In this document: in pieces, positions 15,759-56,226 of the stretch
Layout of the letters: each line of letters begins with the position of its first letter
Numbering within the stretch: the first letter of the stretch is position 1
Source of the DNA: Escherichia coli phage KS_S14
Length of the DNA stretch: 64,000 bases
Sequence record: LC788706.1
Direction: 5' to 3' (one strand)
The notes under the pieces: generated by a model
The model's input: only the letters and a program-made list of their open reading frames with translations
The model's database searches: none
What the model was told of the DNA's origin: nothing
Made by a program: the position numbers and the translations under genes

Positions 15759-16658
15759 ATGTACTACTCTCTAATGAGAGAGTCAAAAGTTATAGTTGAG
15801 TATGATGGTAGGGCATTTCATTTTGATGCCCTATCAAACTATGATATACAGACTTCCTACGAGGAATTCAAGACTCTTCGTAGGACTGTTCATCGTAGAA
15901 CTAACTATGCAGACTCTATTATAAATGCTCAAACCCCTTCTTCTATCTCTCTAGCAGTAAATTTTAGTAATACTCTTACTGAAGCTAACTTCTTTGAATG
16001 GTTAGGTTTTGATAGAAAAGGTAATACTTTCTTACTCCCATTATATAGTAATAATATTGAACCTATTATGTTCAATATCTATATAGTAAACAAAGATAAT
16101 AACTGTGTATATTTTGAAAACTGTTATGTATCTACAGTAGATTTTTCTTTAGATAAGAATATACCAATTCTTAATATTGGTATTGAGTCTGGGAAATTCT
16201 CAGAAGTATCTACCTATAGAGAAGCAGCTTCTATTATACAGGGTGAAGTAATGTCTTACAGCCCAGTAATAGCTTCTACTAATGGCAGCATCTTACCCGG
16301 TCTTATCTCTGCTTCCTTATCTTTCCAACAGCAGTGCTCCTGGAGAGAGGATAAGAGTGTTTTTGATATAAATAAAATTTATAATAATAAAAGAGCCTAT
16401 GTAACTGAAATGAATGCTTCGGCAACCATTTCTCTATACTACTTAAAACGTTTTGCAGGAGATATGGTTTACAATATCGAACCGGAGACAGATGTACCTT
16501 TAAATATAAGAAATAATAATATTTCTATAGATTTTCCTTCAGCACGTATTACAAAACGCCTAGAGTTCTCAGATGTGTATAGAGTTGAGTGGGATGTTAT
16601 ACCTACTGCTTCTTCAGACCCAGTGAGAATAGATTTCTTTGGAGAAATTAAAAAATGA
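15759..16658 (+). CDS. Tail-associated protein (p140-like)
   Basis: 299 aa; between the tail tube and the chaperone-like ORFs. Confidence 0.4.
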   Translation: MYYSLMRESKVIVEYDGRAFHFDALSNYDIQTSYEEFKTLRRTVHRRTNYADSIINAQTPSSISLAVNFSNTLTEANFFEWLGFDRKGNTFLLPLYSNNIEPIMFNIYIVNKDNNCVYFENCYVSTVDFSLDKNIPILNIGIESGKFSEVSTYREAASIIQGEVMSYSPVIASTNGSILPGLISASLSFQQQCSWREDKSVFDINKIYNNKRAYVTEMNASATISLYYLKRFAGDMVYNIEPETDVPLNIRNNNISIDFPSARITKRLEFSDVYRVEWDVIPTASSDPVRIDFFGEIKK

Positions 16659-36862: not shown

Positions 36863-36997
36863 GTTTTCTCCTCGAATTTATGTATATATTATACTAGATT
36901 TCGAGAGAATTTAGCAACTAAAATTTTTATTTTTCTGCTTCGGACTTTCTTATCAATCCGAAACTTTCTCTCTCAAATTTATGTATATATTATACAT
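36863..36997 (-). promoter_or_regulatory. Two copies of a roughly 21-bp early promoter core (..AATTTATGTATATATTATAC..) about 110 bp apart
   Basis: Copies at 36865-36884 and 36976-36995; on the minus strand each reads GTATAATATATACATAAATT, containing TATAAT. Confidence 0.45.
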
Positions 36998-41856: not shown

Positions 41857-42747
41857 TTATACCAAATCTTTAAGCGATTCAGCAACTAAAATTTCAATAC
41901 GTTTTGCTAACATATCAATTTCATCTTTGTTTAAATCACCTGGATCTTTGCCTTCAGGTAGGAGAAAGTTAGCAACTACAGGTGTTAAACGCGTTTTTGT
42001 ACGAATTAGCTTAGCCAATGCTTGTGCAGCTTTATTACCAGAAGCATCATTATCTAGTAAGATAACAACAACTTTTACACCAGCAATAATATAAGGACTG
42101 AACTTATCTGCAATGTTATCCGAAGTAAACTGATGTGTACCAAAGCAGCAAGAAGCATAGTCTATACCATTATCCTCTAGGTTCAGCATATCAAAGATAC
42201 CTTCAACTAGAATAAGAACTGGAGTATTATATCGTACAGGGAAAATCGGTGGTGAAACTTGTTTTGGTTTTACTAAGTATTTAGGAGGGGCAGAACTGTT
42301 TATAGAACGACCCAAAAATAGGATATTGCGTCCAACAGCATCTGTGATTGGGAATACAATTCTGCCTTCCCAGTCTGCTTGGTGTTGGAAAGCAAAATAT
42401 TTCTTCAAGGTCTTAGAACTTATACCTCGGAAATCACCTTCGAAAAGGTAAGCAGATTCAGGAATTGCAAGATTCGTAGATCCATTCCTAATCTCTGAAA
42501 TCTTTTTACGTACCTGCGATAGTCTTGGAGACTGTCGGTACTGAGTCTCATTAAAATAATGGTAAATGCTCGGTATACCTTTACCGAAGCCACAACTCAA
42601 GCAGTGCATAATACCTGTTTCAGGGTCAATACGCAAACTTGGGTGTTTATCGTCATGATCTGGATTGAGACAACAGATGAGGATGTCCCCACCTGTGTCT
42701 TTATATTCAATGCCTTTCAGATCAAGTAGTTCTGTTATTCTACTCAT
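41857..42747 (-). CDS. DNA primase (DnaG-like zinc finger + TOPRIM)
   Basis: Zinc-binding CCLNPDHDDKHPS...CLSCG and TOPRIM-like LVEGIFDMLN ... LLDNDASG. Confidence 0.8.
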   Translation of the reverse strand: MSRITELLDLKGIEYKDTGGDILICCLNPDHDDKHPSLRIDPETGIMHCLSCGFGKGIPSIYHYFNETQYRQSPRLSQVRKKISEIRNGSTNLAIPESAYLFEGDFRGISSKTLKKYFAFQHQADWEGRIVFPITDAVGRNILFLGRSINSSAPPKYLVKPKQVSPPIFPVRYNTPVLILVEGIFDMLNLEDNGIDYASCCFGTHQFTSDNIADKFSPYIIAGVKVVVILLDNDASGNKAAQALAKLIRTKTRLTPVVANFLLPEGKDPGDLNKDEIDMLAKRIEILVAESLKDLV

Positions 42748-44216
42748 ATATCGCTGGCCTGTTCACCTGTTGAATTTTCAGCTTTGTCTTTCTTAGCACG
42801 TTTAGATTGAGCCGGCTTATCCTTCTCAATAGGGATAACGAACTCAGCTTCCATTTGAGATATATCTTCCATTGCTAGGTTGGTAGTGTTATCCATCCGC
42901 AGGGTTTCCCAGTTCATTTTAGGCATAAACTTCACGCTATCAGAAGAACGAGTCTTAACGAAGTCAAACATAATAGCACCTTGACCATTATCAGCTTTTG
43001 CAGCATTAAGATTAGCAGCCATGTCTGCAGAATCAAGAATCCCCTTTGACATACGTGTTCTACCATCTTGATCGATCTGGTAAGGAGCTACACCAGCCAC
43101 GTTATGTTTCTGGCAGATGGATTTGAAAGACGAGCTAACAACCATCTGTTCTTTCCAGTCATACATATCAATGGTTTTAGAGTCTGGAAGTCTGGTTTGG
43201 TTAATATAGTCCAGTAAAGCTACTGTAACTTTATCCCCATATCTAGCAACTAATTTATTTAATTCTACATCAACTGTTGTAATAGACAGCTCAGGGTCAT
43301 AAACAATAATCATAGGAGTATGTAGCTCATACCCTTCTATTAGCTTACTCTCCATATCGTAGAAATCACTCATCTTAGCCATTGTGTACTGTTTAACGAA
43401 GTTGTCGAAAAGCTCTTCACCACCATTAAACATTCTAGCTCTAGTTCTGGCTAATCTCAACAGAGCTGCACCTTCTAGAGTATTATTACGCATTGCTAGT
43501 GCTGATACACCAGCTAACATGGCTAGATTACGTCTAAATACTTCATGTTCTTTCATTTCAATTGAGAAGTATGGAGCAATATCTCCATTCAAATATTGCT
43601 GAACCTGTATGTTTGAACAGATAATGGATTTACCAGTACCACGCCAACCACCAAGCAGTAACGTTTCTGTGCGAGCTAAACCAATTTGAGCGTCGAACTC
43701 ATTACAAATACCAAGAGCGATTAAGTTCAGTTTGGTATCTTCTTCTCTCTGGAAAATACGCATGTTATCTGCGTTGAATACTTTTCCAGTATTCGTTACT
43801 TTCTCTTCTAATTTTAAGTGAAGGGAGGCAACTCGGTTGAGAATTTCTCCCTGATCCAGCATTGTTAAATCTTGAAGCACGTCTGTTTCTAGAAGCTTCA
43901 GGAATAAATCCTGTGTATATTCAGCCTCTAGGACTTCAAGTGCCTGTTCCATGCTAACTTCTGGAATTTGAGTGTTAGCTAAAACGACTAGAGCTTGAGA
44001 AAGGCGGGCGTTCCTATTAGCCTCAAGCATCAGTGCGTCAATGGACGGCATTGTGTTATATTTTTTATAATAATTCTGGACGGCTTGGTAAATTGAGGAG
44101 AAAGCGTCATTAAAATGATCTTTATGCAGTTTTGAGAATGTTTCCAATGCTATTTGCTTCTGTTCGGAAGCTAGAAGCATCTTCAACACTACAGCTTGCA
44201 CGTTAAACAAGGTCAT
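42744..44216 (-). CDS. Putative replicative helicase (RecA-fold, DnaB-like)
   Basis: Walker A-like LLGGWRGTGKS in the C-terminal half; translationally coupled to the primase. Start uncertain (ATG at 44216 or in-frame TTG 6 nt downstream; AGGAG upstream). Confidence 0.5.
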   Translation of the reverse strand: MTLFNVQAVVLKMLLASEQKQIALETFSKLHKDHFNDAFSSIYQAVQNYYKKYNTMPSIDALMLEANRNARLSQALVVLANTQIPEVSMEQALEVLEAEYTQDLFLKLLETDVLQDLTMLDQGEILNRVASLHLKLEEKVTNTGKVFNADNMRIFQREEDTKLNLIALGICNEFDAQIGLARTETLLLGGWRGTGKSIICSNIQVQQYLNGDIAPYFSIEMKEHEVFRRNLAMLAGVSALAMRNNTLEGAALLRLARTRARMFNGGEELFDNFVKQYTMAKMSDFYDMESKLIEGYELHTPMIIVYDPELSITTVDVELNKLVARYGDKVTVALLDYINQTRLPDSKTIDMYDWKEQMVVSSSFKSICQKHNVAGVAPYQIDQDGRTRMSKGILDSADMAANLNAAKADNGQGAIMFDFVKTRSSDSVKFMPKMNWETLRMDNTTNLAMEDISQMEAEFVIPIEKDKPAQSKRAKKDKAENSTGEQASDI

Positions 44217-44298
44217 TCTCCTTTGCACGCTTTCGTGCCTTCTAAATGCAAAAAGGGGAAGGAGCATAGCCCCCTCCCCTTAGGTTTAATTTACCAGA

Positions 44299-45066
44299 TT
44301 ATTCAGCAGCCGCAGCTTTTGCATCCAGTTTAGCACGCTTAGCGGCACCATCATAGTCCTTAGCAACCAGACCACGACGAGACAACATAGATTTAACACC
44401 ACGCTCAGACTTACCAGTTTTCTCAGCGATCTCAGCAACGGTCATGTTAACCAGATCCAGACCTTCTAGCAGATCTTCACGAGTTTTAGCACTTGAAGTT
44501 TCCTGTACCGGCATAGCAGCGATACGACCTTCACGAAGCAGGCTCAGAGCTTTACCACGGATCTGCTTGATATTACGACCGAAGTGAGCAGCGATAGCTT
44601 CAATAGTAGCTCCAGCAACAACCTGATTAACAAAATCGGTTTCTTCATCAGGAGTGAAGGAACGAACAGCAGCAGCTTTTTCAGTTGGTTTAACAGAGGC
44701 GGTCATTTCCAGACTCAGGATCTTACCCTGTACCTGCTTAGCACCAAATTGACCACCAACTACAGCAGCAGCGATTTCAGCATAAGTATACTGACCAGCA
44801 TGAGCGTTCAGGAAATCAACCAGTTCAGCTTCCTGCTCAGGAGTCCATGGGGATTTCTGTACTTCGTTAGCTTTCTGTACTTCAAAACCTTCTTTACGCA
44901 GTTTAGAGCCAACAGAGCGAGCAGTAACATCTTTGCCAGTTTCAGCAGCCAGTTCAGCAGCAATAGCAGCTACTTGTTCTTGAGAGATTACAGAAACACC
45001 CAGAGCGGTGGCTTTTGCTTTCAGAGACTCGGTTACACCTTCTACGTTCCAGTTCAGTTTAGACAT
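44299..45066 (-). CDS. DNA-binding protein with three tandem HTH-like repeats (D5-like)
   Basis: 255 aa; three related segments (AEIAAAVVG...KILSL / IEAIAAHFG...KALSL / VAEIAEKTG...KSMLS); Ala-rich. Confidence 0.45.
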   Translation of the reverse strand: MSKLNWNVEGVTESLKAKATALGVSVISQEQVAAIAAELAAETGKDVTARSVGSKLRKEGFEVQKANEVQKSPWTPEQEAELVDFLNAHAGQYTYAEIAAAVVGGQFGAKQVQGKILSLEMTASVKPTEKAAAVRSFTPDEETDFVNQVVAGATIEAIAAHFGRNIKQIRGKALSLLREGRIAAMPVQETSSAKTREDLLEGLDLVNMTVAEIAEKTGKSERGVKSMLSRRGLVAKDYDGAAKRAKLDAKAAAAE

Positions 45067-45832
45067 TATTATTTTTCTCCAATAGTTCTTTAATCGACAG
45101 GATTTCTATCCCATTCGTTTCGGCTTTCTTATAAGATGAGGAAGAACGCTTCGATTCATCCTCACAGATTAGGTATTTGACGTCTTTGGTAACGGATTTC
45201 TTAACCGTGTATCCTAGACCTTCTAAATAGTTTGTTGCATCCGTTCGGTTTGCAAAGTCTTGCAAAGATCCGGTAATACATACCGCGATTCCATTTGGCT
45301 GGGCAACTAAATCATCAGTAACGACGGTTTTAGCTTTAGCACCAGTTGAGAATTTCCACGGTAATTCGATAACATCCTTGCCTTGTGGGGAATTTAGCCA
45401 GGCTTTATAGTTTTCTCCAGCCTTGCCGTCAGCCTTCACATCGTGAAAGCCAGTGCAATTTTGGGATAATTTCTTTGCTGCAACCTCTCCAATTAGAGGG
45501 ATTCCTAAAGAACCGAGAACTGAACCAAAGTCAATGTCTCCGCGAACTTTAGTATTTAATTCGCTAATTAACTTAGCGGCAACCTTGCTACCCACGGCTC
45601 TAACCAAATCTTCTTCGGTTAGGTAAAATAGTTCTGAAATCTTCGTCAGCTCCAGCTTCTCAATAGTTTTCGGGCCAAAGCCCTTTAACTTCATTTTTGT
45701 ACAGAAGTTCTCAATTAACTTACTTGATTGCGCTGGACAGTTGGACTTATTCCGACAGAATAATTGTCCGTTGACAAGATCTAGCTTAGAACCACAAGAG
45801 GGACATTGTGTTGGAATTTCGATTTTCATCAA
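45059..45832 (-). CDS. NAD-dependent DNA ligase, C-terminal portion (Zn finger, HhH, BRCT)
   Basis: C4 zinc finger (CPSCGSKLD...CRNKSNC), HhH-like GIPLIGEVAAKKL, BRCT-like tail; separate ORF from the adenylation domain. Confidence 0.85.
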   Translation of the reverse strand: MMKIEIPTQCPSCGSKLDLVNGQLFCRNKSNCPAQSSKLIENFCTKMKLKGFGPKTIEKLELTKISELFYLTEEDLVRAVGSKVAAKLISELNTKVRGDIDFGSVLGSLGIPLIGEVAAKKLSQNCTGFHDVKADGKAGENYKAWLNSPQGKDVIELPWKFSTGAKAKTVVTDDLVAQPNGIAVCITGSLQDFANRTDATNYLEGLGYTVKKSVTKDVKYLICEDESKRSSSSYKKAETNGIEILSIKELLEKNNNV

Positions 45833-46031
45833 ATTTCTTCCTTATCAATTTATATAAATATTATAGCAAGTATTTAAGCATTTAGCAACTACAATTTTAA
45901 CTAACTTTGCTTACCCTCGCCATAACTTTCTATCCCTCAACTGAATGATAATAGTATATACCTAAGCGGCGAAAATGTCAATAACCACTTTATAATTCCG
46001 ATATGGTAGATGGGTAGCAAAGGGTTATGTA

Positions 46032-47003
46032 TTAATCATATACTCGCTCTACTATGCACGGGATTACACCACCAGCACGAATCACTCGAATCTGGCAACC
46101 GATCTCTAGATCAAGAGAGTTAATATAATCAACGTTATTAAGAGTCGCTTTAACAATTGTAGCATCATCAATAATTACCGGTTCGAAATAACCAACTGGA
46201 GTTACTTTACCAGAGGCCCCTACCTGCCACTCAACTTTAGTAAGAGTAGTAATCTCACCTTCTTCATCCTCTTTAATAGCGAATGCTCCACGAGGGAATT
46301 TATTAGTCCAGCCTTCTCGGAAGAATTTGTTGTTGTCATTAATACGAACAACTTTACCATCCGTTGGAATCCACTTAAAGAAGGAACGCACATTAACAAC
46401 TGTTAAGAAATCTTCATTCTCTAGCCAAAGCATATCTTTTAAATACGTTTCTGTAATACCTACAGATTCAGCAGAACACTGGATACCATATGCAACGAAG
46501 ATTAAACCACCTTCCCCTATACGTTGTACGAAATCATCGCTATCTTTGAGGTTAATAGCACCAGAGGCAAAGTTACGTTTATTTTCTACTTCTTTTGTAA
46601 TTAGAACTTCACCAGTGATTTGAGTAGGTACTTTTTGGGAAATCTTTTGAGGGATGTTCAGCAATCTTACGTTGCTTGTGACATCATTCCCTAGAATACC
46701 ATTACCACGAGTTAGTGCTTGAACAAATTCGCCATTAATATATAACAGAGAAATCGCACAACCATCTAACTTATCAGTTTCTACCTGACCTAATGGGTTA
46801 AACGGAGGTTTATCTCCACGATTATAATAAACTTTCTGTAAAGAATACATACGATACAGATGTGGAATATCGCCCTTAGGCCCGATCTCTTCTTCTAACG
46901 GAAATCTTTTAATCAGACGATCATATTCTTCGTCAGAGATTAAAGACATTCCCTGGTAATATGCTTCTTGGCAACGTTTAATAAAGTCTTTTACATTAGT
47001 CAT
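46032..47003 (-). CDS. NAD-dependent DNA ligase, N-terminal portion (adenylation + OB domain)
   Basis: LigA-type N-terminus (EAYYQG...SDEEYD) and KxDG adenylation motif (KLDGCAISL); ends before the Zn-finger segment. Confidence 0.85.
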   Translation of the reverse strand: MTNVKDFIKRCQEAYYQGMSLISDEEYDRLIKRFPLEEEIGPKGDIPHLYRMYSLQKVYYNRGDKPPFNPLGQVETDKLDGCAISLLYINGEFVQALTRGNGILGNDVTSNVRLLNIPQKISQKVPTQITGEVLITKEVENKRNFASGAINLKDSDDFVQRIGEGGLIFVAYGIQCSAESVGITETYLKDMLWLENEDFLTVVNVRSFFKWIPTDGKVVRINDNNKFFREGWTNKFPRGAFAIKEDEEGEITTLTKVEWQVGASGKVTPVGYFEPVIIDDATIVKATLNNVDYINSLDLEIGCQIRVIRAGGVIPCIVERVYD

Positions 47004-47090
47004 TTATTTGTATCTCTCATTAATTTATATAAATATTATATAACAAAACTGAGTTGAAAGCAAATACATTTATAAAGAAAAAGCCAAGAA

Positions 47091-47399
47091 CTAGGCATTC
47101 TTGGCTTTGAGTTCTTCAGCTCGTTTCTGTACTTCATGTAAAACCTCAGATTCGCTAAGAATCTGTGTAAACGCATAGAAAAGCTGCGATGTTGTTTCTA
47201 GGGTGTAAGGAAAAGAGAAGCCAGATTTCGTTGGAAACCATTCATCATTAATATCAAGAAGCCAGTAACGAATACCCATGTATAGATTCCCACGAAATTC
47301 AGATACTGTTAATCTTACTTGTTCTCCCTCCTTCTCCCAGAGTATGATGGACTGGTCATCAACGTGTCCTTCATAGTTTTGATTTACCTGTTCGCTCAT
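47091..47399 (-). CDS. Hypothetical protein, possibly PC4-like ssDNA-binding fold
   Basis: 102 aa; RLTVSEFRG...IRYW...W pattern resembles PC4/YdbC-type proteins; weak. Confidence 0.3.
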   Translation of the reverse strand: MSEQVNQNYEGHVDDQSIILWEKEGEQVRLTVSEFRGNLYMGIRYWLLDINDEWFPTKSGFSFPYTLETTSQLFYAFTQILSESEVLHEVQKRAEELKAKNA

Positions 47400-47449
47400 T
47401 TACATATCCCAAATACACAAAAAGCCCCATATAGGGGCTAATTGGTTTC

Positions 47450-47746
47450 TTATCGGCCTACTGGAGAAGCACGATCTAACTCTGATTGGAGGCTAGTCAC
47501 ACGACGGACTTTCTCGACAGGAATAAAACGGAAGCTATCATTAGTACGAGAGAAGACAAGGATCTCATCATCTTTCGCTTTACGAATACGTTCACGTTTA
47601 ATACGCTCAGCCAGATATTTATCTTGGGCTGGATCAAATTCCATCGTACCCTGAAGGTACGTGGTTCCTTTCTGACGAAGTTTCTCGTAATGAAGATAAA
47701 ACTCACCAAATTTTTCACATTGTGCGATAATTTCAGCTTTGGTCAT
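47450..47746 (-). CDS. Hypothetical protein
   Basis: 98 aa; flanked by a hairpin terminator at about 47404-47428. Confidence 0.4.
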   Translation of the reverse strand: MTKAEIIAQCEKFGEFYLHYEKLRQKGTTYLQGTMEFDPAQDKYLAERIKRERIRKAKDDEILVFSRTNDSFRFIPVEKVRRVTSLQSELDRASPVGR

Positions 47747-52335: not shown

Positions 52336-52834
52336 AACGATACTCCTGTGTTGGAAATGAAATAAGTTTTCTTTAGGACTATTCAGAAAGAATAGAACAA
52401 CTGTTACTGTCAATTTCTCAACAAATTAATTGCAAATACTGAAGTGGGGTGGCAACTTCCACTTTCACGCTACACTGCCGCTTCACTATACCGCACAAAT
52501 CCTTGAGGATGGCCGCTAAGCCAGATTTGCTCACCTAATGCTTCATGTACTAGCTCATACTAGATGTAGTATACCTTACGTCATCACTTCTCAGAGTTTT
52601 TCACTCTTCCCGTCTCACTTCACAACCACCTCACACTAGGTTGCTTCGAGGCCTTACCAGGGTTCCTACGGGATGTAGATCGCTAAGTATTCTATTAATT
52701 ATTTGTTTAAAAACTAACACGTAACAGTTAAAACAACCCTTAATGGGGCAGCCTAACTGTTCCGTATCGCGGATTGTAAACAAGAAAAATTAGCAAAATC
52801 AATTTTTACTAATGTCTCTCAATTCAATATAAAT
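52336..52834 (-). other. ORF-free, GC-enriched region of about 500 nt: long 5' leader or non-coding RNA candidate
   Basis: No ORF of 60 codons or more in any frame, and no ATG ORF longer than 3 codons found on the minus strand; lies between a consensus promoter and the helicase start; short CACTTC/GTGAAG-type repeats and local inverted repeats. Confidence 0.3.
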
Positions 52835-52863
52835 ATTATATCAAGATTTTGGGCATCCTGCAA
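52835..52863 (-). promoter_or_regulatory. Sigma70-type promoter (minus strand)
   Basis: TTGCAG, 17-nt spacer, TATAAT. Confidence 0.5.
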
Positions 52864-56127: not shown

Positions 56128-56226
56128 AGCTTTCTCCTCTCAAATTTATAAATCTATTATATATAAATTTTTGGCTGAAAGCAAATAAAATAAAAGCCAG
56201 GTCGACTAGCAACCCGGCTGATTAGC

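Follow-up and report, generated by a model that had tools for sequence, protein, structure and literature searches.

The minus-strand locus at 45059..47003 in the Escherichia coli phage KS_S14 window (sequence record LC788706.1; the window is the whole stretch of 64,000 nucleotides that was analysed) very probably encodes a heterodimeric NAD+-dependent DNA ligase of the T5 type, with two separately made subunits and a promoter module for ligB and D5. The window belongs to Tequintavirus and is 100% identical to phage Baret across 44900..47200. The two-gene (LigA/LigB) ligase at this locus is real and conserved, and it is also ordinary and already known. The split T5 ligase has been present in GenBank and in the literature since 2005, and our finding changes nothing in the current understanding of it. 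The products of ligA and ligB are given as subunits in PMC3632103.

Gene Layout of the Locus

The features of the locus are listed below in the order of transcription.

47080..47108, minus strand: terminator-like hairpin with a T-run where the upstream PC4-like gene ends (12-bp stem, 5-nt loop, T-rich tail)
47035..47063, minus strand: ligA promoter, TTGCTT (47063..47058)-17-TATAAT (47040..47035), from the sequence and the T5 annotation
46032..47003, minus strand: ligA, catalytic subunit, 323 aa (Pfam, 9hu3_A, 2owo alignment)
45830..46031, minus strand: non-coding spacer, 202 bp (sequence; identical to the T5 spacer)
45953..45981, minus strand: distal tandem promoter, T5 P-K 28b, TTGACA-17-TATACT (11/12 matches; T5 feature)
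45860..45888, minus strand: proximal tandem promoter, T5 P-K 28a, TTGCTA-17-TGcTATAAT (10/12 matches plus extended -10; T5 feature)
45059..45829, minus strand: ligB, DNA-binding subunit, 256 aa when counted from its ATG (Pfam, 9hu3_B, AF2/Foldseek)
44299..45066, minus strand: D5 gene, DNA-binding protein (T5 D5/T5.118; HTH and sigma-70 region 4-like Pfam matches)
44253..44281, minus strand: strong terminator-like hairpin where the ligB-D5 unit ends, before the DnaB-like helicase gene (13-bp stem with 8 GC pairs, then a T-run)

The initial annotation had described two separate ORFs of 323 and 257 aa, about 200 bp apart, and had pointed to the annotation of the T5 ligase as two subunits. We found both ORFs in place on the minus strand, and their Pfam domains agree with this description. 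The length of 323 aa was correct for LigA. The count of 257 aa comes from the ORF at 45059..45832, which begins with a TTG directly before the ATG at 45829. This ATG lies 8 nt after a Shine-Dalgarno sequence (AAGGAAG). Phage Baret is annotated with the same start, which also corresponds to residue 1 of PDB chain 9hu3_B. Because ATG 45829 was taken as the start, LigB has 256 aa rather than 257, and the spacer measures 202 bp, close to the distance first estimated. The reference to T5 was also right: in the T5 record, ligA (T5.116) is subunit A and ligB (T5.117) is subunit B.

The gene upstream of ligA has a Pfam PC4 match and is a homologue of T5.115. The predicted hairpin at 47080..47108 separates this gene from the ligA transcription unit.

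The LigA Subunit

LigA contains domain Ia, the nucleotidyltransferase (NTase, adenylation) domain, and the OB fold, and it is 98.5% identical to T5 LigA. The protein matches Pfam DNA_ligase_aden (E = 1.3e-23), and its residues 252-321 match DNA_ligase_OB (E = 3.6e-22) and align to residues 284-390 of E. coli LigA (2owo). Motif I (K78-L-D-G) aligns to K115 of E. coli LigA, and the same alignment pairs R99 with R136, E132 with E173, D215/G216 with D285/G286, and K244 with K314. The NMN-binding residues of domain Ia, on which the specificity for NAD+ depends, are Y15, Y16, D24, Y27, and D28. In this domain, the segment AYY...ISDEEYDRL aligns to YY...ISDAEYDRL in T. filiformis LigA and to PDAEYDRL in E. 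coli LigA; the motif is identical, but the local alignment score of this short segment is weak. LigA would have all the parts needed to react with NAD+ and form ligase-AMP on K78.

The motif IV lysine, K290 in E. coli LigA, is R220 in the phage protein. The replacement is conservative, and it is probably tolerated because the solved enzyme of Providencia phage PR1 carries the same residue (9hu3_A).

The LigB Subunit

The Cys4 zinc finger of LigB (C9, C12, C25, and C31) is invariant across 24-31 homologues in alignments A2 and A3. The BRCT domain was recovered above the Pfam cutoff (E = 9.2e-8), and the HhH matches were weak and below it. The AF2 model of LigB has a pLDDT of 84, with a low-confidence linker at residues 164-177 between the HhH region and the BRCT domain. 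A Foldseek search with this model returned 9hu3_B as the best match (E = 9e-26), followed by 2owo_A, to which the model aligned over 175 columns (E = 3.7e-7). By phmmer, LigB residues 3-248 align to residues 400-653 of 1dgs. LigB would thus supply the modules by which full-length bacterial LigA binds and encircles nicked duplex DNA.

The 256 aa of KS_S14 LigB and the 259 aa of T5 LigB differ by a 3-residue indel in the linker before the BRCT domain. The 120 best LigB homologue clusters, down to 50% identity, ranged from 190 to 263 aa, and none had a fused length; the three clusters below 247 aa stem from partial or truncated calls. The ligB gene is often annotated as 'hypothetical' and even as 'tail completion protein', and the comparison is useful for its annotation.

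Break Point and Probable Assembly of the Two Subunits

By alignment, the ligase is divided exactly within the short linker that joins the OB fold to the zinc finger. The OB fold of LigA stops at residue 320, which corresponds to residue 390 of E. coli LigA, and the protein ends about 3 residues later. LigB residue 3 aligns to E. coli residue 402, and the first zinc-finger Cys lies 8 residues after the start. About 11 linker residues are absent between the two proteins. The two KS_S14 ORFs, 202 bp apart and in different frames, depart from the single-chain layout usual in the LigA family, and this sets the T5-type variant apart.

The initial annotation had also asked how the two polypeptides assemble. 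This question has been addressed experimentally for a homologue, the PR1 ligase, in PDB 9HU3/9I5I, which was released on 2026-01-14 with the title 'PR1 phage heterodimeric DNA ligase in complex with 21-mer nicked DNA containing phage nick sequence'. Chain B of 9hu3 is 100% identical to the protein of Providencia phage PR1/PSTCR5 and is named 'DNA ligase subunit B' in the entry.

LigA matched 9hu3_A (E = 8.8e-104) and LigB matched 9hu3_B (E = 4.5e-81); chain A stops where LigA stops, and chain B begins where LigB begins. In KS_S14, LigA and LigB would be translated separately and would come together as a non-covalent LigA-like clamp around nicked DNA. We infer this assembly by analogy with the PR1 homologue, for which the title of 9HU3 reports it.

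The Spacer and Its Tandem Promoters

An early-type promoter-like element had been noted in the spacer. The element is present, but it is not single: two sigma-70-type sites lie in tandem on the coding strand, at 45981..45953 and 45888..45860. The T5 feature P-K 28b (66366..66440) maps to 46001..45927 in the window, and P-K 28a (66459..66533) maps to 45908..45834. By this correspondence the spacer promoters are the T5 early promoters P-K 28b and P-K 28a, which date from promoter studies of the 1980s.

Promoter-like matches in the wider region (9 found, 10.6 expected from shuffled controls) were not above controls, so the case for the two sites rests on identity with T5, fixed offsets, and invariant hexamers. 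Seven of the eight loci scanned have the distal -35 at -151 to -155 and the proximal promoter at -58 to -60 from the ligB ATG; the values for My1 (-126 and -38) were counted from a differently annotated ligB start. The hexamers of the tandem pair are invariant in alignment A4 and their flanks drift. The TTGnTATAATAT of the proximal promoter is likewise invariant in A4.

The ligA promoter lies inside a T5-annotated promoter feature directly upstream of ligA (L008 2421..2495, window 47083..47009), and the 19 nt from its -10 onward are identical to the P28a counterpart. A mini-ORF after P28b (MARVSKVS) is probably not coding, and its ATG is not conserved. A search of the window for the PN25 sequence gave no match, which is uninformative, as the sequence used or the phage allele may differ.

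Probable Transcription of ligA and ligB-D5

The layout suggests that ligA is transcribed from its own early promoter. Because a hairpin scan found no terminator in the 202-bp spacer after ligA, the ligA transcripts would run on into ligB. P-K 28b and P-K 28a would act as strong tandem early promoters of a ligB-D5 operon, which the terminator at 44281..44253 would close. The pair keeps a fixed distance from ligB even when extra ORFs occur in the gap, which argues that the promoter module heads this operon. D5 begins with an ATG inside the ligB frame, and the two genes share 8 nt (ATGTCTAA overlap). This overlap indicates that D5 is co-transcribed with ligB and is probably also translationally coupled to it. 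Judged purely by promoter layout, ligB and D5 would be transcribed more heavily than ligA. The spacer would be better viewed as the promoter module of ligB-D5 than as the remnant of an interrupted gene.

LigB may have an extra role beyond ligation. Because ligB shares its own conserved strong promoter pair with D5 and is always physically uncoupled from ligA, one could imagine that LigB is made in excess and has a second, LigA-independent job, and that the split, far from being a neutral accident, lets the DNA-binding module be dosed and function independently; we regard this as unlikely. If true, the second job might be to recognise or guard the site-specific single-strand nicks of T5-type genomes, or to recruit partners via the BRCT domain.

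Distribution in Demerecviridae

A comparison with related genomes, which the initial annotation had proposed as a check, gave the same two-gene layout across Demerecviridae genera, and its view of the split as a conserved family trait was well founded. Separate ligA and ligB genes were found in every genus sampled (Tequintavirus, Sugarlandvirus, Myunavirus, Priunavirus, Novosibvirus, Thalassavirus, Vipunavirus, and a further Vibrio phage), and 430 phage records cover the region to 80% or more. Protein identity across the eight genera is 45-72%. Both genes occur together in every genome examined, and neither was seen alone. The shared synteny is ligA, 0-2 ORFs, the tandem promoters, ligB, D5, and the DnaB-like helicase gene. 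The gap between ligA and ligB ranges from 170 to 1135 bp, and the promoter pair is kept at a fixed distance from ligB in all eight genera.

What the comparison adds is that, on this distribution, both the OB/Zn break and the tandem promoter module were in place before the sampled Demerecviridae genera diverged and are ancestral to them. The interval from ligA to the module is a variable slot for small cargo genes. Variable spacer content had also been suspected from two-piece BLAST matches in relatives (H8, H9); the insertions sit upstream of ligA instead. The comparison is also of use for the engineering of split ligases or T5 promoters.

Alternative Explanations for the Two Genes

LigB could instead be mainly an independent DNA-binding protein, with Zn-HhH-BRCT domains and D5 as its partner, while LigA acts alone or with host factors. 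The coupling of ligB to D5 in transcription, and probably in translation, but not to ligA would fit such a protein, as would the ligA-ligB distance of more than 1 kb in Vibrio phages and the promoter module that always accompanies ligB. However, ligA and ligB co-occur in all genomes examined, and the PDB entry has A and B together on nicked DNA, with B named as a ligase subunit. In addition, isolated Ia-NTase-OB fragments of NAD+ ligases, such as that of LigN, self-adenylate but cannot ligate (PMC1684257). That LigB is not primarily a ligase subunit is thus very unlikely.

Some phage genes contain group I introns, bypassing elements (T4 gene 60), or inteins that interrupt them, and the two halves might be joined into one polypeptide by a self-splicing intron, by programmed read-through or bypassing, or by a split intein. 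However, the only Rfam match at E <= 1 across 44500..47500 was an unrelated sRNA-like one at 47419..47450, outside the spacer, and an intron was rejected. The 202-nt spacer is made up of two conserved promoters, and in Vibrio and Proteus phages the gap is occupied by whole protein-coding genes. The spacer has 5-6 stop codons in every frame, and ligB lies in the +1 frame relative to ligA. In LigA 3 residues follow the OB fold, and in LigB 8 residues precede the first zinc-finger Cys, which leaves no room for intein halves. With no extra terminal sequence, stops in all frames, and a different ligB frame, intein and read-through were rejected as well, and the PDB title of the solved PR1 enzyme calls it a heterodimer. 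The chance that the halves are joined is negligible.

It is equally improbable that the split is an artefact or recent pseudogenisation, i.e., a single gene disrupted by a frameshift or by an error in sequencing or assembly: most NAD+ ligases are indeed single polypeptides of about 670 aa (2owo, 671 aa), but 430 independent phage records share the same two-ORF layout, as do eight genera whose proteins are 45-72% identical, the linker residues are missing outright and not frameshifted, the PR1 homologue has two chains in the PDB, and the stops in the spacer and the frame of ligB argue against it in the same way. The initial annotation had judged that the split is probably no error, and the comparative data, stops, and frame exclude intron, intein, frameshift, and assembly artefact.

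Comparison with Known Systems

The T5 ligA and ligB genes (T5.116/T5.117; AAS77162/AAS77163 = AAU05253/AAU05254) are the same genes in the same order and with the same strand logic. T5 has the HNH gene hegJ further downstream, whereas the KS_S14 window is without hegJ. The PR1 ligase (9HU3/9I5I) likewise consists of two chains, of 339 aa (chain A) and 248 aa (chain B), divided at the same point, and PR1/PSTCR5 has the same motif IV R, synteny, and promoter module as KS_S14. However, PR1 is a Priunavirus from another host genus; its LigB is about 55% identical to that of KS_S14.

The single-chain bacterial LigA proteins (E. coli, 2OWO; T. filiformis, 1V9P/1DGS) have the same domain order as the phage pair (Ia-NTase-OB-Zn-HhH-BRCT) and share its catalytic residues, and a like three-step NAD+-dependent mechanism and DNA-encircling clamp would be expected. 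In contrast, E. coli LigA is one polypeptide of 671 aa and the phage enzyme is 323 + 256 aa, with about 24-30% identity between the phage pair and the single-chain proteins. Between motifs I and IV, the NTase domain of the phage enzyme has about 33 residues fewer, the HhH region is also shorter, and the OB-Zn linker of about 11 residues is missing.

Split genes in T4-like phages are often linked to mobile endonuclease genes. In the T5-type ligase, by contrast, no homing endonuclease was found in the ligA-ligB gap of any genus sampled. As the cause of the split it has no support: the gap ORFs of Vibrio and Proteus phages had no significant Pfam match and only a weak 'DprA-like' hint.

T4 topoisomerase II (gp39/gp60/gp52) is another phage enzyme made as separate subunits where the cellular homologues are fused. 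It belongs to an unrelated family, but like the T5-type ligase it is a multidomain DNA enzyme cut at a domain boundary, whose subunits reassemble.

The two ligase genes

The NAD-dependent DNA ligase of the window is encoded by two minus-strand open reading frames (ORFs), ligA for the adenylation/OB subunit and, 202 bp downstream, ligB for the Zn-finger/HhH/BRCT subunit:

46032..47003, minus: LigA ORF, 323 aa (Pfam DNA_ligase_aden, E = 1.3e-23; DNA_ligase_OB, E = 3.6e-22)
45059..45832, minus: LigB ORF (Pfam BRCT, E = 9.2e-8; HhH models weakly matched)

The initial annotation described two separate genes, which is upheld by the division of the Pfam domains between two minus-strand ORFs and by the recurrence of this layout across the family. 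The two-gene ligase is real, conserved, probably functional and already known. The LigB ORF had been given 257 aa; the ORF is present, but that length included a TTG codon immediately upstream of the ATG at 45829. An AAGGAAG Shine-Dalgarno sequence precedes this ATG, which is also the annotated ligB start in phage Baret and coincides with residue 1 of 9hu3_B (PDB, Providencia phage PR1 ligase); thus, LigB has 256 aa. Public annotation of ligB is inconsistent, with the names 'hypothetical protein', 'BRCT domain-containing protein', 'NDP-dependent ligase' and even 'tail completion protein'.

LigA residues were mapped by HMMER alignment to the LigA of E. coli (2owo) and T. filiformis (1v9p). K78 corresponds to E. 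coli K115 (motif I KLDG, the adenylation lysine), R99 to R136, E132 to E173, D215/G216 to D285/G286 and K244 to K314; R220 (K290, motif IV) is a conservative change, and R is also found in the solved PR1 enzyme. The NMN-binding pattern of domain Ia is present as AYY...ISDEEYDRL (Y15, Y16, D24, Y27, D28). LigA extends 3 residues beyond its OB fold, the end of which aligns to E. coli 390, and E. coli 402 is aligned to LigB residue 3. Thus, the break lies in the OB-to-zinc-finger linker, of which about 11 residues are missing. Among 24-31 aligned homologues, the zinc-finger cysteines C9, C12, C25 and C31 of LigB are invariant, and the start is always 8 residues ahead of the first Cys. In an AF2 model of LigB (pLDDT 84) the linker before BRCT, residues 164-177, is disordered; the top Foldseek match of the model was 9hu3_B (E = 9e-26), followed by E. 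coli LigA structures.

Other explanations of the break were rejected. An intein would need spare sequence for its halves, which neither the LigA nor the LigB terminus has. An intron was discarded because Rfam gave no match within the 202-bp spacer. An artefact or frameshift is contradicted by 5-6 stop codons per spacer frame, by the +1 frame of ligB relative to ligA and by the family-wide recurrence of the layout.

Spacer promoters and the proposed ligB-D5 operon

47108..47080, minus: terminator hairpin ahead of the ligA promoter
47063..47035, minus: ligA promoter, TTGCTT-17-TATAAT (T5 has an unnamed promoter directly upstream of ligA)
45981..45953, minus: distal spacer site, TTGACA-17-TATACT, sigma-70-type
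45888..45860, minus: proximal spacer site, TTGCTA-17-TGcTATAAT, sigma-70-type
44281..44253, minus: strong terminator after D5

The promoter scan ranked the two spacer sites highest among sigma-70-type sites on the minus strand. T5 promoters P-K 28b and P-K 28a map onto the distal and proximal site, respectively, which bears out the early-type promoter previously proposed for the spacer. No terminator was found between ligA and ligB in the window, and the end of ligB overlaps the start of D5, a DNA-binding protein gene, by 8 nt (ATGTCTAA). From this layout, three promoters would drive ligB-D5 and a single one ligA, which suggests that the spacer is the control region of a ligB-D5 operon. Downstream of P-K 28b lie an SD-like GAGGGA and a mini-ORF of 8 codons, MARVSKVS* (about 45897..45940, minus). 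Its ATG is not conserved in the Klebsiella or Pectobacterium phages, and the mini-ORF is probably non-coding, a vestigial leader.

The 19-mer TATAATATTTATATAAATT, comprising the -10 hexamer and the first 13 transcribed bases, is identical at the ligA promoter (47022..47040, minus) and P-K 28a (45847..45865, minus). At up to 3 mismatches it has 7 matches in the window against 0.17 expected, the others being at 36875..36893, 36976..36994, 52822..52840, 56143..56161 and 16515..16533. These matches are consistent with a T5 early promoter family having a common downstream region.

Neighbouring genes and relation to Baret

47091..47399, minus: PC4/p15-like ssDNA-binding transcriptional coactivator homologue upstream of ligA (E = 8e-8)
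44299..45066, minus: D5, 255 aa (Pfam HTH and sigma-70 region 4-like matches)
42744..44267, minus: DnaB-like helicase ORF
41857..42747, minus: primase ORF, directly adjoining the helicase ORF

D5 and the PC4/p15-like gene are annotated inconsistently in public records. Positions 44900..47200 match Escherichia phage Baret (Tequintavirus, Demerecviridae) at 100% identity. However, T5 (hegJ/T5.120) and Baret have a 534-nt HNH homing-endonuclease gene between helicase and primase. Because these ORFs abut in the window, the HNH gene is absent from its phage, and the window is therefore distinct from the Baret record. This is a presence/absence polymorphism of a mobile endonuclease.

Comparison across Demerecviridae

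Each subunit was searched separately by tblastn, and the gap was measured from the ligA stop to the ligB ATG. Separate ligA and ligB were found in Tequintavirus/Epseptimavirus, Sugarlandvirus, Myunavirus (My1), Priunavirus (PSTCR5/PR1), Novosibvirus (Proteus phage 2), Thalassavirus (Athena), Vipunavirus (VPG01) and a further Vibrio phage group (D249). The split is accordingly a conserved family trait rather than an error, as the initial annotation had supposed.

Table. Gap between ligA and ligB, and its content.
T5 / window: 202 bp; none
Klebsiella VAC51: 199 bp; none
Pectobacterium My1: 170 bp; none
Providencia PSTCR5: 192 bp; none
Proteus phage 2: 344 bp; one 55-aa ORF
Vibrio D249: 443 bp; two small ORFs
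Vibrio Athena: 1048 bp; two genes
Vibrio VPG01: 1135 bp; two genes

In 7 of the 8 loci scanned, including Vibrio phages with 1-kb gaps, the distal site (TTGAC[AG]-17-TATA[CA]T) starts 151-155 nt and the proximal site (TTGC..-17/18-TGnTATAAT) 58-60 nt ahead of the ligB ATG. My1 has both, at -126 and -38 from a differently annotated ligB start. In the module alignment the promoter hexamers are invariant and their surroundings drift (66% mean identity). These fixed offsets indicate that the extra Vibrio and Proteus genes sit between ligA and the module, which travels with ligB.

In Vibrio and Proteus Demerecviridae the ligA-to-module interval is a slot for variable cargo and holds 1-2 small ORFs (relatives' loci L004, 3969..4861; L006, 3469..4448; L005, 3457..3917; L007, 3492..3659; L010, 833..1345). 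ORFs in the gap had no significant Pfam match, and no homing endonuclease was found among them. A 'DprA-like' gene lies in the slot in Athena but upstream of ligA in My1 (35% identity over 94 aa, E = 3e-14).

In a 5.8-billion-protein set, the 120 top-ranking clusters of LigB homologues were 190-263 aa long, down to 50% identity, with no fused-length homologue among them; the three below 247 aa were all partial or truncated calls. Two weaker matches outside Demerecviridae were inspected, and the match at 30% identity turned out to be a normal full-length bacterial ligA from a contig with the wrong label. The other is a jumbo-phage ligase: Serratia jumbo phage 2050HW (L013, 1606..3590) has an unrelated NAD-dependent ligase annotated as three consecutive CDS (65 + 59 + 535 aa), which could reflect frameshifts from sequencing or another type of interruption close to the N-terminus.

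Comparison with known ligases

In the T5 reference (AY543070), ligA is T5.116 'subunit A' and ligB is T5.117 'subunit B', with the features 'promoter P-K 28b' and 'promoter P-K 28a' between them and a spacer sequence identical to that of the window. The split T5 ligase has been on record, in GenBank and in print, since 2005, and both subunits are listed in PMC3632103 and PMC4319617. The additions made here are incremental. They concern how old the split is across the family, the tandem promoter module, fixed in place and tied to ligB-D5, and the cargo slot with its variable content.

Two protein chains are present in PDB entries 9hu3 and 9i5i, 'DNA ligase (NAD(+))' (339 aa) and 'DNA ligase subunit B' (248 aa), matching LigA (E = 8.8e-104) and LigB (E = 4.5e-81) of the window; chain B has 100% identity to Providencia phage PR1/PSTCR5. 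Entry 9hu3, released 2026-01-14, is titled 'PR1 phage heterodimeric DNA ligase in complex with 21-mer nicked DNA containing phage nick sequence'. Thus, for one member of the family, experiments have addressed how the two polypeptides assemble, a question raised initially; no paper on this ligase was found in the literature searched. In established LigA biochemistry, an Ia-NTase-OB fragment self-adenylates but does not seal nicks without the Zn-HhH-BRCT portion, as summarised and reproduced for LigN (PMC1684257). This behaviour fits an obligate two-subunit enzyme.
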